Assembly (NCBI GenBank): GCA_040217755.1
Contig: JBEHWJ010000002.1
Location: forward strand, 3,113 to 67,112
Reading direction: 5' to 3'
Source of the DNA: Syntrophomonadaceae bacterium
GTDB taxonomy: Bacteria; Bacillota; Syntrophomonadia; Syntrophomonadales; Syntrophomonadaceae
DNA length: 64,000 nucleotides
Below the pieces are notes generated by a model that worked only from the letters and a program-made list of their open reading frames with translations, ran no database searches and had not been told where the DNA came from. Position numbers and translations under genes: made by a program. Positions 3,207-61,991 of this stretch are shown here, piece by piece (positions within the stretch are counted from its first letter, which is position 1; each line of letters begins with the position of its first letter).

Positions 3207-3234
3207 ATAAGCCTCCTTTTCACTGGTTCAGAAA

Positions 3235-3265
3235 TTAAAAAACCCTCGTCCCAGATAGGGACGAG
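3235..3265 (-). terminator. Intrinsic terminator of the leuS T-box leader
   Basis: Minus-strand RNA reads CUCGUCCC-UAUCU-GGGACGAG followed by UUUUUU. Its 5' arm is shared with the antiterminator. Confidence 0.85.
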
Positions 3266-3307
3266 AGTAATTTTCCCGCGGTGCCACCCATTTTGACAAG
3301 TATAATA

Positions 3308-3383
3308 TGGTGGAGCTAGTGGGATTCGAACCCACGGCCTCTTGAATGCCATTCAAGCGCGATCCCAACTTCGCCATAGCCCC
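3308..3383 (-). tRNA. tRNA-Ala (anticodon GGC), CCA encoded, embedded in the leuS leader
   Basis: Hand-folded 76-nt cloverleaf. Acceptor GGGGCTA/TAGCTCC with G3:U70; D arm GCGA-AGTTGGGA-TCGC; anticodon arm CTTGA-ATGGCAT-TCAAG; T arm GTGGG-TTCGAAT-CCCAC; A73 then CCA. Confidence 0.85.
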
Positions 3384-3562
3384 ACAACTTGACCACTCGT
3401 TATTGTAACGGTACAACCGCCCCAGGCTACTTGGTTCACCTGTGGTGCTCACCGGCGAGTTCGACAATATGCTTGCCACCTCCCACCATATGGTGACTCT
3501 CTGTCGAAGGATTGCCTACTACTCCGGTTCATCGCATGTTCTTTCTTCATTTGACAATTGCC

Positions 3563-3591
3563 ATTATAAAATAACTGTCCTGCAAAGTCAA
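3563..3591 (-). promoter_or_regulatory. Sigma-A type promoter for the leuS leader
   Basis: Minus strand reads TTGACT (3586-3591), 17 nt, TATAAT (3563-3568). Confidence 0.7.
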
Positions 3592-3717: not shown

Positions 3718-4335
3718 GTGAGAAAATTGTTTGATCTGGAGAATAAATATATCGGGGCGGTGGCGATATTGGTTTTGGTGCTGGCATTTGGCGCCGGTAT
3801 GAAATACGGTGCTTCCAAGCTCGGAGAAAAGCCGGAAGGGATAGTCATCGAAGAACCGCCCCCGGTGGCGGCGGGAGAGGAAGAACGGGAAACCATTCAG
3901 GTATACGTCATCGGTGCGGTGGCCAATCCGGGAGTGTATAGATTGCCAGCCGAGGCCCGTGTACTGGAGGCGGTTCAAATGGCCCAAACCTTGCCCGAGG
4001 CTGACCTGGAGAATATCAATCTGGCCCAAAAGATGGAGGATGGCGCGGCTATTCGCGTGCCCCGGCAAGGGGAGAATCCGGATCCTAACGTCCCGGGAGG
4101 GATGACGGGGCTGGGTTTTACCGGTTCAGCCCCCACCGGCAAGGTGAATATCAACAATGCCAGCATCCAGGAGCTTGACGACCGGTTGCCCGGTATAGGC
4201 CCCGCCCTGGCCCAAAGGATAGTGGATTACCGCACTCAGCACGGACGGTTCGCCAATATTGAAGAATTAAAGGAAGTCAGCGGTATCGGCGATAAAAAAT
4301 ATGCCGAGTTGCAGGACCTCATAACGATAAGGTAG
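3718..4335 (+). CDS. comEA: Competence protein ComEA (SLBB domain plus helix-hairpin-helix DNA binding)
   Basis: 205 aa. N-terminal TM segment and C-terminal HhH repeat (LPGIGPALAQRIVDYR...VSGIGDKKYAEL). GTG start. Confidence 0.9.
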   Translation: MRKLFDLENKYIGAVAILVLVLAFGAGMKYGASKLGEKPEGIVIEEPPPVAAGEEERETIQVYVIGAVANPGVYRLPAEARVLEAVQMAQTLPEADLENINLAQKMEDGAAIRVPRQGENPDPNVPGGMTGLGFTGSAPTGKVNINNASIQELDDRLPGIGPALAQRIVDYRTQHGRFANIEELKEVSGIGDKKYAELQDLITIR

Positions 4336-4340
4336 ATGCC

Positions 4341-6629
4341 ATGTGGATGTCTTGGCCGGCGATATTGGTCTGTTTAAGCATGGGGATATGCCTGGCTCAT
4401 TTCCAGGCCTGGCTTTGGTCGGCAGCATTAGTGGCCGCAGGGTTGGCCGCGGGTACTATCTGGACTCGATGGCGTCCGCATTTGGCGGTGGGACTGTTAG
4501 CGGTTGGGGTCGGTATCCTGCTCTGCAGTTGGGGCGTTCCGCCCGCTCCGCTTGGCTTGGAGGAGCAATCCCGCTTTGCGGTGTCCGGGCGGATAGAAAG
4601 CATACCTTATTATGATGGGGAAAACACGGTCTTCATTGTGGACACCGACGACAGCTCGCCTTATAAACGCCGGCTAAGGGTGGTATGCCTGTTTGCGGCT
4701 GATTTCCAGCGCGGTGCCCAAGTGCACCTGGAGGGTAAACTCAAGCCGCCCCGGGCCCCCGGCAACCCCGGGCAATTCGATTTCCAGTCTTATCTGGCCA
4801 ACCAAGGGATTTACTACAATCTGCATATAAAGGAAACGACCGGTGTCCGCTTGCTCAGTCCTGCCTCCGGGCTGATAAGGAGGATAGATTGCCAGCGGGT
4901 CCGTGCAGAGAGCCTCACCCGGCAGGTGTTGCCGGCCGAGGAAGCCGCCATCCTTCTGGGAATGATCTGGGGCGGCCGGGCTGGTATGGACGATCAGCAA
5001 TATGAAGACTTTCAAAAGACGGGCATAGTCCATCTGTTTTCCGTAAGCGGCCTGCACGTAGGATTTTTACTGGTGCTGATCAATTGGCTGGTTTCGCTGG
5101 CTGGAGCAGGCCCCCGGGGCAGGTTCATAGCGGGTGTGTCCGGGTTGTTGCTCTATGGCACCATGGTAGGTTGGCCGCCTCCGGTCACGCGAGCCGTCTT
5201 GATGGGTAGCCTGGGATTACTGGCCTACTTGAGCGGCCGCGAAAACGGGCTGCTGAACGCCTTATCCATATCTGGGGTAGTCATGCTGCTGGCGGAACCT
5301 TCATTGTTATTCAACCTCAGTTTTCAACTGACCATGCTGGCTACCGGCGGCCTGGTCTACCTGTTTCCCCAGATGCGGGCCTTTCTCCCCGGGGGAGGCT
5401 GGCTGAAGGACCTGGTCCTGATCCCGCTGAGTGCTGAACTGGCTATTTTACCCCTGGTAGCTTACCATTTCAATATCTTGACGCCAGGTTCCATCGTAAC
5501 CAATATTGCGGCCGCCTACCTGGCCGGAGCTGCGGTAATCCTCGGTTTCATCGCCAGCCTTCTTGCTGGCCTGTCCCCAACCATAGCTTCCGTATTCCTG
5601 TATCCGGCGGGGATGTTCATCGAATGGATCCTGAGCATCGTCGCGGGGGTCAAGGCCCTGCCGGGTGCCTATCTTTATGTGGCCACTCCCTCCGTTACGG
5701 GGGTAAGCCTTTATTACGCGATCATGGCGTTGGTGCTTGTTTCGCTGCGGGTCGAAGCCGGCCGGGTACTGTTCAGACCGGCAGTGGGGCTGCTGTTGAT
5801 CTGGGTAACGATACTGGTGATACCGGCCCAATTTTATGATCGGGGTCAGGCCGAGGTCGTTTTCATAGATGTCGGACAGGGTGACGCCATCCTGGTTAAG
5901 AGTCCGGGCGGCAAGTTTATCCTGGTGGATGGGGGCGGGAGTCAATTTTTCGATGTAGGGGCCGATGTGGTCTTGCCTTACCTGCATCACCGGGGCATCC
6001 GCAAACTGGATATGGTCATCAGCACCCATCCCGATGTCGATCATGTGCAGGGATTGGTCAAAGTCATCGCTGCGATGCCGGTGACCTGCCTGGGATTACC
6101 GGTCTCCCTGGCGGGTGATGAAGACTACCGGGAGCTTAACGATATCGCCGCGAAGCAGCAAATCCAGATTTTATATATGTATGCGGGACAATCGATCAAA
6201 CTGGAGGAAGGCTTCCGCATCGATGTCATCCATCCTCCAAGGGAGACTGGCAGCAGCGATCCCAACCGGGATTCAGCGGTACTCCTGATCAGTTATCAAA
6301 GATTCACGGTCTTGTTGACCGCTGATGTGTCCGCCGCAGACTTGGCTTCGATAGGTGACCGGGTCGGCGGTCCGGTCACGATCCTAAAAATCCCGCACCA
6401 TGGCAGCAAAGGGTCCCTGGGCCGGGATTTCTATGAGCAGGTAAAACCTGCCGCTGCGGTGATTTCCGTGGGAGCCGACAATAACTTCGGGCATCCCCAC
6501 CCGTTGGTCCTGACCGCCCTGGAAGAGACGGGGATCCGGATAATGCGCACTGATCTTCAGGGCCTGGTAGCCATCAGCAGCAACGGCCGCGAATATCAGA
6601 TCCATACTCAGATTTCGAGCCAGCTGTAG
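4341..6629 (+). CDS. comEC: DNA internalization channel ComEC/Rec2 with C-terminal metallo-beta-lactamase domain
   Basis: 762 aa polytopic membrane protein. The MBL-like motif STHPDVDHVQG is present, and it follows comEA. Confidence 0.92.
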   Translation: MWMSWPAILVCLSMGICLAHFQAWLWSAALVAAGLAAGTIWTRWRPHLAVGLLAVGVGILLCSWGVPPAPLGLEEQSRFAVSGRIESIPYYDGENTVFIVDTDDSSPYKRRLRVVCLFAADFQRGAQVHLEGKLKPPRAPGNPGQFDFQSYLANQGIYYNLHIKETTGVRLLSPASGLIRRIDCQRVRAESLTRQVLPAEEAAILLGMIWGGRAGMDDQQYEDFQKTGIVHLFSVSGLHVGFLLVLINWLVSLAGAGPRGRFIAGVSGLLLYGTMVGWPPPVTRAVLMGSLGLLAYLSGRENGLLNALSISGVVMLLAEPSLLFNLSFQLTMLATGGLVYLFPQMRAFLPGGGWLKDLVLIPLSAELAILPLVAYHFNILTPGSIVTNIAAAYLAGAAVILGFIASLLAGLSPTIASVFLYPAGMFIEWILSIVAGVKALPGAYLYVATPSVTGVSLYYAIMALVLVSLRVEAGRVLFRPAVGLLLIWVTILVIPAQFYDRGQAEVVFIDVGQGDAILVKSPGGKFILVDGGGSQFFDVGADVVLPYLHHRGIRKLDMVISTHPDVDHVQGLVKVIAAMPVTCLGLPVSLAGDEDYRELNDIAAKQQIQILYMYAGQSIKLEEGFRIDVIHPPRETGSSDPNRDSAVLLISYQRFTVLLTADVSAADLASIGDRVGGPVTILKIPHHGSKGSLGRDFYEQVKPAAAVISVGADNNFGHPHPLVLTALEETGIRIMRTDLQGLVAISSNGREYQIHTQISSQL

Positions 6630-44913: not shown

Positions 44914-44988
44914 TCCTCGATAGCTCAACGGTAGAGCATCCGGCTGTTAACCGGAGGGTTGTAGGTTCGAATCCTACTCGGGGAGCCA
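44914..44988 (+). tRNA. tRNA-Asn (GTT)
   Basis: 75-nt cloverleaf with anticodon loop CTGTTAA, G73 discriminator and encoded CCA. Confidence 0.9.
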
Positions 44989-44999
44989 TGAAAAAAACA

Positions 45000-45029
45000 G
45001 CGGTAAACGGTTAATTTACCGCTTTTTTT
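45000..45029 (+). terminator. Intrinsic terminator after tRNA-Asn
   Basis: GCGGTAAA-cggttaa-TTTACCGC followed by TTTTTTT. Confidence 0.75.
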
Positions 45030-45068
45030 ATTGCCGTACTACACTCATCAGTATTTGTTTTCTGACTA

Positions 45069-45097
45069 TTGCTTTTTGCATACATATTATATATACT
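45069..45097 (+). promoter_or_regulatory. Candidate promoter of the three-tRNA unit
   Basis: TTGCTT, 17 nt, TATACT. Confidence 0.5.
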
Positions 45098-45125
45098 AAC
45101 TCTTGCGGGGTTTTTAGAGACCTCC

Positions 45126-45201
45126 GGGCCTATAGCTCAGTTGGTAGAGCTACCGGCTCATAACCGGTTGGTCCCAGGTTCGAATCCTGGTAGGCCCACC
45201 A
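45126..45201 (+). tRNA. tRNA with CAT anticodon (elongator type; resembles lysidine-dependent tRNA-Ile2 more than the initiator)
   Basis: 76-nt cloverleaf with paired G1:C72 (so not an initiator), anticodon loop CTCATAA and encoded CCA. Met versus Ile2 cannot be decided by eye. Confidence 0.88.
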
Positions 45202-45205
45202 TCAT

Positions 45206-45281
45206 GGCCCCTTGGTCAAGCGGTCTAAGACACCGCCCTTTCACGGCGGTAACGGGGGTTCGAGTCCCCCAGGGGTCACCA
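45206..45281 (+). tRNA. tRNA-Glu (TTC)
   Basis: 76 nt with anticodon loop CTTTCAC. Close to Bacillus tRNA-Glu, with encoded CCA. Confidence 0.9.
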
Positions 45282-45357
<76 letters not shown>

Positions 45358-57414: not shown

Positions 57415-57470
57415 AAAATACTGGACAAAAATGATAAATTGTGATTTAGTATAAGAACAATCTCTTGAAT

Positions 57471-57550
57471 AAAGGCAAACTCGTTGAAAGACGAAGACGC
57501 AAAGCCACGGGTCTAAGGACAGCAATGTCTATGACAGCCGGGTTGCCTGG
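57471..57550 (+). promoter_or_regulatory. c-di-GMP-I (GEMM-I) riboswitch aptamer, plus arm, copy 1
   Basis: GGCAAAC...UGAAAG...GACGCAAAGCCACGGGUCUAAGG...AGCCGGGUUGCC matches the GEMM-I core as I remember it from Vc2. Confidence 0.85.
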
Positions 57551-57605: not shown

Positions 57606-57649
57606 AATTGAATAATTCAGGACGGCGGGGCCAAGAGCCCCTCACCGAT

Positions 57650-57730
57650 AATAGCAAACCTGTCGAAAGGCGGGGACGCAAAGCCACGGGTCTAAGGACG
57701 ATTGGTCTACGATAGCCGGGTTGCCGAAGG
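57650..57730 (+). promoter_or_regulatory. c-di-GMP-I (GEMM-I) riboswitch aptamer, plus arm, copy 2
   Basis: AGCAAACCUGUCGAAAGGCGGGGACGCAAAGCCACGGGUCUAAGGACG...AGCCGGGUUGCCGAAGG. A T-run lies at 57746-57751, but I could not resolve a clean terminator stem. Confidence 0.88.
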
Positions 57731-61644: not shown

Positions 61645-61727
61645 TTTCGGCAACCAGGCTGTCATAGACTAATCGTCCTTAGACCCTTGGCTTTGCGTCC
61701 CCGCCTTTCGGCGGGTTTGCCTTTGTC
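61645..61727 (-). promoter_or_regulatory. c-di-GMP-I (GEMM-I) riboswitch aptamer, minus arm, proximal copy
   Basis: RNA reads GGCAAACCCGCCGAAAGGCGGGGACGCAAAGCCAAGGGUCUAAGGACG...AGCCUGGUUGCCGAAAU. Confidence 0.88.
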
Positions 61728-61837
61728 GGTGAGGGCTTACAGCCCTGCATCAGAATAAGGAACTAAATGTAAACAGTCTACCTTATACATATATATACGA
61801 ACTCGGAAACAGATAACCGTGGCAAAAATGTTATTAA

Positions 61838-61881: not shown

Positions 61882-61960
61882 CTCTGCAACCCGGCGGTCA
61901 TGACCTTGCGGCGTTAGACCCGTAGCTTTGCGTCCCCGCTTTTCAACGGTTTTGCCCTTA
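61882..61960 (-). promoter_or_regulatory. c-di-GMP-I (GEMM-I) riboswitch aptamer, minus arm, distal copy
   Basis: RNA reads GGGCAAAACCGUUGAAAAGCGGGGACGCAAAGCUACGGGUCUAACG...CCGCCGGGUUGCAGAG. Confidence 0.82.
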
Positions 61961-61991
61961 AGAGAAAATCGATTGCAATTATCTTATGCTT

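Follow-up and report, generated by a model that had tools for sequence, protein, structure and literature searches.

An alanine tRNA gene nested within the Stem III hairpin of a leucine-sensing T-box riboswitch controlling leuS

Can a single leader RNA hold both a riboswitch and a gene for a transfer RNA (tRNA) of a different amino acid specificity? This question is raised by the leader of leuS, the gene for leucyl-tRNA synthetase, in a 64,000-nucleotide (nt) stretch of a Syntrophomonadaceae genome (contig JBEHWJ010000002.1); the whole of this stretch is referred to here as the window. On the minus strand of the window, an alanine tRNA gene is nested within the Stem III hairpin of the leucine-sensing T-box that controls leuS. 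A preliminary description based on the sequence alone had placed a complete tRNA-Ala(GGC) at the Stem III position of this T-box. We compared that description with family models, with related loci from other genomes and with the published literature on T-boxes.

Anatomy of the leuS leader

Both parts of the composite are recognized by their family models. The Rfam T-box model RF00230 matches the minus strand at 3541-3254 over all 219 model positions (111.7 bits against a gathering score of 93, E 7.4e-24). This match spans the tRNA, which the covariance-model alignment treats as an insertion of approximately 85 nt in the Stem III loop. The tRNA, 76 nt in length at 3383-3308, had been described as a canonical tRNA-Ala(GGC) and is called by both ARAGORN and Rfam RF00005 (66.2 bits, gathering score 29, E 3.6e-12).

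The order of elements proposed earlier, running from a promoter through Stem I with specifier CUC, Stem II, IIA/B-like elements, the tRNA, the T-box sequence and an antiterminator/terminator pair to leuS, holds for each structural element. The leader is preceded by a sigma-70-type promoter (TTGACT at 3591-3586, a 17-nt spacer and TATAAT at 3568-3563; 11/12 matches). Stem I (3535-3447), with its GA/K-turn motif, AGUA, AGAGA bulge, distal loop and specifier loop, aligns to RF00230 with high posterior probabilities, and its helix is also present in the minimum-free-energy (MFE) fold. The leucine specifier CUC (3459-3457) is found within GAA-CUC-G at 3462-3456, where it is followed by the purine G3456, and agrees with the amino acid of the downstream gene leuS. 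Stem II (3444-3421) and the Stem IIA/B region (3419-3405) together correspond to model positions ~106-150 of the same alignment.

The signature of the T-box discriminator domain is RRRxG-Stem III-AA (PMC7778990, PMC7583486), and in the window this domain is complete, with the RRRxG string, Stem III, the AA and helices A1 and A2. The purine string GAGUG (3398-3394) is followed by the 5' strand of Stem III, GUCAAGU (3393-3387), then by the tRNA, and then by the 3' strand ACUUGUC (3301-3295), which pairs with the 5' strand with one mismatch, and by AAAA (3294-3291). These strands follow the RF00230 structure line, and the flank duplex has an energy of -6.4 kcal/mol. The preliminary description was right about where the tRNA lies but not in letting it stand in for Stem III: a real Stem III helix (3393-3387/3301-3295) persists around the tRNA, which occupies the Stem III loop.

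The T-box sequence AAAAUGGGUGGCACCGCG (3294-3277) contains the acceptor-binding bulge UGGC (3286-3283). From the 3' end of the tRNA to GGUGG the distance is 19 nt, in rough agreement with the seventeen nt given earlier between the tRNA and the T-box sequence, a value that depends on the start chosen. The antiterminator (3289-3258) is formed by helix A1 (GGG/CCC), the 7-nt bulge UGGCACC and helix A2 (GCGGG/CUCGU). A terminator scan identified an intrinsic terminator (3268-3236, with an 11-bp stem at 3268-3242 and a U-tract) whose 5' arm overlaps the 3' strand of the antiterminator at 3265-3258. Folded as a whole, the leader has an MFE structure with Stem I, a helix-enclosed cloverleaf and the terminator. 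The leuS gene follows at 3206-726 (826 amino acids; Pfam tRNA-synt_1, LeuRS editing domain and Anticodon_1), with a Shine-Dalgarno sequence GGAGG at 3216-3212. As judged from its sequence, the element passes the tests for the T-box family, the variable bulge base excepted.

The window tRNA has G1-C72, G2-C71, G3:U70, A14, G18G19, the anticodon loop AUGGCAU, the T-loop UUCGAAU, A73 and an encoded CCA; the features named in the preliminary description can all be read in the sequence. These include the identity set of alanyl-tRNA synthetase, G3:U70 with A73. The D-arm of the window clade is unusual, with an A13-U22 pair and the D-loop AGUUGGGA; the A13-U22 pair is a double, compensatory change. 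At the level of sequence, the element passes each test for a bacterial tRNA-Ala.

Recurrence and conservation of the nested arrangement

In a scan of 185,579 species, each represented by one genome, we looked for GGTGGNACCGCG lying 17-47 nt after a generic tRNA T-loop (GGTTCRANTCC), a pattern in which alanine is not specified. The scan listed at least 120 matches; all locus counts given here are among the matches listed and are lower bounds. The comparison with leuS leaders of relatives that had been suggested in the preliminary description yielded the same composite in at least 111 species-representative genomes from several phyla. Given this recurrence, the composite in the window is not a chance association. 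ARAGORN identified a tRNA at the match in 108 loci, and all 108 are tRNA-Ala(ggc); in L018, L038 and L045 the edge of the locus truncates an otherwise identical arrangement. LeuS is encoded downstream in 108 loci. Based on record titles, the carriers include 58 Chloroflexota (several classes) and 31 Bacillota, with a few in Armatimonadota and Coprothermobacterota. The Bacillota carriers are from the Syntrophomonadaceae, Peptococcaceae, Thermacetogeniaceae, Desulfofundulus and Desulfitispora, and cultured carriers are Thermosyntropha lipolytica DSM 11003, Desulfofundulus thermosubterraneus DSM 16057 and Desulfitispora alkaliphila DSM 22410. The LeuS of the window shares 85-87% identity with that of L100 and L118, and the window is closest to Syntrophomonas. 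We conclude that the arrangement is ancient and widespread.

Candidates for other tRNAs nested in T-boxes (L007, L020, L031, L034, L067, L069, L095, L096 and L099) were rejected. These nine non-Ala matches are chance matches, have a tmRNA-like (transfer-messenger RNA-like) 3' end by eye, or are plain T-boxes. No non-Ala nested tRNA was found among the matches listed, and rarer classes may exist. Metagenome-assembled genomes labelled Proteobacteria, Methylocystaceae, Bacteroidales or Solirubrobacterales (L008, L027, L032, L068 and L092) also carry the arrangement. On the LeuS tree, L008 and L068 are placed in a large, mainly Chloroflexota clade, and L092 in a Bacillota clade. All five are probably mis-binned contigs and not true occurrences in the labelled phyla. 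In the Coprothermobacterota locus L062 (~2087-2325), Stem I is very short and lacks the distal platform, AGUAGUAGGCGGAAUGCC leading directly into GAACUCG. The locus has a hairpin 3' of the T-box sequence, though its Stem I is reminiscent of the truncated form in actinobacterial ileS T-boxes. L114 probably shares this type of short Stem I.

The T-box is conserved around the tRNA. Of the loci with enough upstream sequence, 105/105 have the CUC specifier, in GAACUC[GA] or a closely similar form; the purine string [AG]AGNG-G is found in 94/109 loci and an equivalent terminator on the 3' side in 100/108. The bulge is UGGU in 105/109 loci, matching A73 of the Ktedonobacter tRNA-Leu(GAG). The Stem III flank helix covaries, for example as GGACCGA/TCGGTC, GGATAGG/CCTATC and GGGTAAAGTTAT/ATAACTTACC, and its mean duplex energy is -12.1 kcal/mol for native strands vs -8.4 for strands combined across loci. 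The expectation that the insertion would be structurally tolerated is supported by these many different complementary sequences, which keep the Stem III helix around the tRNA. The distance from the tRNA end to GGUGG varies from 9 to 33 nt across loci, and we noticed no conserved sequence in the tRNA flanks beyond Stem III. A full-length RF00230 match spans the tRNA in all 19 loci tested, 9 of them reaching the gathering score and the other 10 scoring 57-86 bits. Searches by E-value additionally give sub-threshold matches of the nested tRNA to tmRNA, which has a tRNA-Ala-like domain.

The nested tRNAs show the pattern of selection seen for tRNAs. They score 62-70 bits, which is normal for tRNA. 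In an alignment of 58 distinct nested homologues with 21 pairs each, all 1218 of the 1218 pair cells are standard pairs, and 15 of the 21 pairs show compensatory change. G3:U70 (58/58), G34G35C36, A73, U8, A14, G19 and the T-loop are invariant. Across loci, A73 is present in 108/109, and the lone exception looks like an offset of the script in locating position 73. CCA is encoded in 32/32 Bacillota (window included) and in 37/58 Chloroflexota, so that CCA encoding differs by lineage; it is not encoded in 23 of 109 loci. None of the 8-kb loci contains a second tRNA-Ala(GGC), a statement about the loci and not about whole genomes. The idea that the nested copy drifts beside a stand-alone tRNA-Ala(GGC) is already contradicted by the conservation data.

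The two parts can occur separately. We examined a comparison set of 80 metagenomic LeuS relatives, 72 of them with enough upstream sequence: 2 have the nested arrangement, 5 a leuS T-box with a plain Stem III and 65 no T-box. The leuS T-boxes of L122 and L148 are of the plain Stem III kind, and the LeuS of L122 is 67-69% identical to that of the window. In L175 (~1355-1500), one of the 65, a tRNA-Ala(GGC) and then a T-box-like terminator (CTCGTCCCTAAGGGATGAG plus a T-run) are found directly 5' of leuS, and both Stem I and the T-box sequence are absent; this locus appears to be a derivative that retained the tRNA without the riboswitch. Its upstream open reading frame (ORF) is rsfS-like by eye. 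Together, L122, L148 and L175 indicate that neither part needs the other. In a neighbour-joining tree of the LeuS N-terminus all three fall among the nested Bacillota, and the nested state requires 8 changes vs ~57 for shuffled labels. This pattern fits an old single origin of nesting with occasional loss of either partner, the nested and comparison sets being sampled differently.

Transcription and proposed function

Where does transcription of the nested tRNA start? The window leader is divergent from a comEA-like gene (3718-4335, plus strand; HHH_3, SLBB) and a comEC-like gene (4341-6629, plus strand; Competence, DUF4131 and Lactamase_B), and the intergenic region shared by the leuS leader and comEA is ~125 nt. 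There is thus no same-strand upstream gene to supply transcription. In a sigma-70 scan, the sole promoter-like site 5' of the window tRNA is that at 3591-3563 on the minus strand. Across related loci, the same consensus detects a promoter-like site within the specifier-to-tRNA interval in 0/99, vs 65/99 upstream of Stem I, 41 of these matching at least 11/12 positions. This comparison strengthens the case, made for the window in the preliminary description, that the tRNA has no separate promoter.

In eleven Anaerolineae-, Caldilineae- and Thermoflexales-type loci (L032, L033, L049, L052, L060, L063, L072, L074, L080, L088 and L110), a second tRNA, Ala(CGC), directly precedes Stem I in the same orientation; it lies 183-357 nt 5' of the nested tRNA. 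In 10 of the 11, a promoter of the type TTGACA-17-TATACT ends ~11 nt before tRNA-Ala(CGC), and the consensus scan finds no promoter in the Stem I/II spacer between the two tRNAs. The unit in these loci consists of promoter, tRNA-Ala(CGC), Stem I/II, tRNA-Ala(GGC), discriminator with terminator, and leuS, and the sensing domain of the T-box is thus the spacer of a two-tRNA operon. The identity between tRNA-Ala(CGC) and tRNA-Ala(GGC) is 0.85 within the same genome vs 0.82 between genomes, a difference that carries no information on their co-evolution. We infer that in vivo the nested tRNA is co-transcribed with the leader from a single upstream promoter.

In the mechanism that we propose, RNA polymerase would start near 3556 from a promoter that fires constitutively, and Stem I and Stem II of the leucine (CUC) T-box would be transcribed first. 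The tRNA-Ala(GGC) would come next, its cloverleaf folding independently at the solvent-facing Stem III tip. Synthesis of the 3' strand would then close the Stem III helix, and the T-box bulge and the antiterminator/terminator switch would follow. Uncharged tRNA-Leu(GAG) bound to Stem I would stabilize the antiterminator and allow readthrough into leuS; with charged tRNA-Leu, the terminator would form. Because the tRNA lies 5' of the terminator, terminated and read-through transcripts alike would carry pre-tRNA-Ala. Since every initiated transcript would carry it, the supply of tRNA-Ala(GGC) would be set by the promoter alone. The best reading is that tRNA-Ala output is constitutive and leuS is controlled by leucine. 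Based on the anatomy and on textbook tRNA maturation, RNase P would release the 5' end of the tRNA, and exo- or endonucleases would make the 3' end of a tRNA with encoded CCA; in the absence of CCA, RNase Z and the CCA-adding enzyme would act instead. This excision would sever the sensing domain from the leuS mRNA, and the released tRNA would be aminoacylated and used in translation. The preliminary description had proposed both this severance and a tRNA-Ala precursor in each leader transcript. A permissive Stem III tip would let the T-box and tRNA functions coexist; the stem and loop of Stem III are known to vary (PMC7583486).

More direct links between the two parts were considered and rejected. 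Self-antitermination, by pairing of the ACCA end of the nested tRNA with the UGGN bulge, is incompatible with the 23 of 109 loci that encode no CCA and with the UGGC bulge of the window. Pairing of the nested anticodon with the specifier fails for lack of complementarity between GGC and CUC, the latter being the codon that matches leuS. Some Chloroflexota have genes that separate the T-box from LeuS; judged by eye from their translations, and not by family search, these look ilvE-type, GNAT or acyl-CoA-synthetase-like, and an alanine link through them (for example AlaX-type editing) was discarded.

We regard it as very probable that the leader is dual-purpose, with a single transcript acting as both a working T-box and a working tRNA gene. 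Several observations weigh against this interpretation. Ten loci, mostly Chloroflexota or of unassigned phylum (L001, L006, L010, L011, L017, L033, L044, L049, L062 and L102), stay below the RF00230 gathering threshold of 93 when searched again by E-value; the low scores of these real leuS T-boxes are largely due to the nested tRNA. The UGGC bulge, found in the window, in its two closest relatives (L100 and L118) and in L052, ends in a C that mismatches the A73 expected of tRNA-Leu, which makes the efficiency of antitermination in the window species uncertain; no tRNA-Leu(GAG) of its own was found within the 64 kb. In many loci Stem III reaches to within 0-2 nt of the acceptor stem, and the paired 5' leader could slow RNase P. 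Finally, the promoter scans of the window and of the 99 loci used the sigma-70 consensus only, and other promoter types are outside their scope.

Four other explanations place the weight differently. In one, the T-box is a decayed relic, leaving a tRNA gene and a terminator with leuS expressed separately; L175 demonstrates that a state of this kind can exist, and the UGGC/A73 mismatch is in keeping with it. We consider this very unlikely, because the window match is above the gathering score over all 219 positions, and because ~100 loci preserve the specifier, the purine string, a covarying Stem III and the overlap between antiterminator and terminator. Moreover, the interval from the T-box match to the LeuS match (~80 nt in the window, 57-150 nt in many loci) is too short for a terminator and a promoter. 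It is scarcely credible that the locus comprises two independent units, a tRNA with its own promoter inside the leader and T-box parts that merely flank it. We found nothing in favor of this reading: none of the 99 loci has a promoter-like site in the interval concerned, which in the window is filled by Stem II, IIA/B, the purine string and the 5' strand of Stem III, and the T-box sequence cannot work without Stem I, located 5' of the tRNA. Equally implausible is a pseudogene or a structural module of tRNA-like form that plays no part in translation. The unusual D-arm of the window clade speaks for such a module, but the anticodon, G3:U70, A73, U8, A14, G19 and the T-loop are invariant, the stems are 100% paired with compensatory changes that include the odd D-stem pair, the scores are those of normal tRNAs, and CCA encoding differs by lineage.

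The explanation with more in its favor, although we doubt it, is that the nested tRNA is an integral part of the riboswitch. Its excision would sever Stem I after the decision, free tRNA-Leu and yield a hairpin-protected leuS mRNA; in a variant, the ~85 extra nt would give tRNA-Leu longer to dock before the terminator is made. A benefit of excision, through reset, mRNA stability or timing, would then explain why nesting was retained. Persistence at a constant position in over 100 species of at least two phyla, the strong clustering of the nested state on the LeuS tree and the precedent of thrS leader cleavage in Bacillus subtilis are consistent with an integral role. On the other hand, L122 and L148 regulate leuS with a plain Stem III, L175 keeps the tRNA without a T-box, the flanks beyond Stem III have variable length and no conserved sequence that we noticed, and persistence may reflect the difficulty of moving an essential single-copy gene. 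Beyond the dual-purpose leader itself, we tentatively raise the possibility of a self-dismantling riboswitch, in which excision of the tRNA after the decision resets the sensor, protects the 5' end of the mRNA and recycles terminated leaders, this coupled benefit having retained the nesting. If so, the tRNA would have been held in Stem III since before the leuS leaders of Chloroflexota and Bacillota diverged, and the Anaerolineae T-box would work as both spacer and trailer of a tRNA operon.

Elsewhere in the window there are two tandem pairs of c-di-GMP-I (cyclic di-GMP) riboswitch aptamers, at 57464-57550 and 57643-57728 on the plus strand and at 61645-61730 and 61882-61966 on the minus strand. 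All four are above gathering scores, and the GGC variant model RF03167 is matched by one aptamer on the minus strand. A tRNA cluster at 44914-45357 (plus strand) contains Asn(GUU), Met(CAU), Glu(UUC) and Val(UAC), the last three 0-4 nt apart.

Comparison with known systems

We found no published description of a tRNA nested in a T-box, T-box surveys and reviews included, and a passing mention in older papers is possible. There is no mention in the TBDB paper (PMC7778990), in Wels 2008 or in the Zhang 2020 review (PMC7583486), nor in a review of tRNA recognition or an RNA-seq study of Deinococcus. This agrees with the view of the preliminary description that the arrangement is undescribed. What is new is the combination, given that the T-box family and bacterial tRNA-Ala are each known. 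To our knowledge, no other functional gene has been reported inside a structural hairpin of a riboswitch.

In most respects the leader resembles a canonical transcriptional T-box (RF00230; tyrS, glyQS and leuS of B. subtilis), with a Stem I containing a K-turn, specifier loop and distal platform, followed by Stem II, IIA/B, RRRxG-Stem III-AA, a UGGN bulge, mutually exclusive antiterminator and terminator, and a synthetase gene downstream. In a canonical T-box, however, the Stem III loop has a few nt, whereas here it holds a 76-nt tRNA gene, and the specificities differ (alanine vs leucine). The insertion also puts the tested loci outside core Bacillota, mostly Chloroflexota, below the gathering score. 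This creates a blind spot in annotation, since at the gathering score most loci outside the core Bacillota examples would show only a tRNA.

Transcripts that combine tRNAs with an mRNA are known. In the thrU-tyrU-glyT-thrT-tufB operon of Escherichia coli, tRNAs and a translation-factor mRNA are transcribed from one promoter and split by processing that includes RNase P. The tRNAs of that operon just lie 5' of the mRNA, whereas here the tRNA is inside the riboswitch element, 5' of a regulated terminator, and in some Anaerolineae two tRNAs have the sensing domain as their spacer. In the thrS T-box leader of B. subtilis, an endonucleolytic cut 5' of the terminator parts the sensor from the mRNA and stabilizes the mRNA. 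That cut is not at a tRNA and yields no second gene product, in contrast to the cleavage at a tRNA that we would expect here. Embedded tRNA folds that are cut by RNase P and RNase Z and define the ends of their neighbors are found in the mascRNA of MALAT1 and in mitochondrial tRNA punctuation. These systems are eukaryotic or organellar and include no riboswitch, and mascRNA is not a decoding tRNA.

The closest parallels within T-boxes are lineage-specific insertions in the discriminator, such as Stem Sa in staphylococcal glyS, and those of Stem III and Helix A2 (PMC7583486). The same review lists "curious insertions" in every T-box domain as unexplained and of unknown function (PMC7583486). 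As in those cases, extra RNA is tolerated in the 3' aminoacylation-sensing domain. Unlike them, the insertion described here is an independent gene with its own signature of selection, and one class of these unexplained insertions is thereby accounted for.

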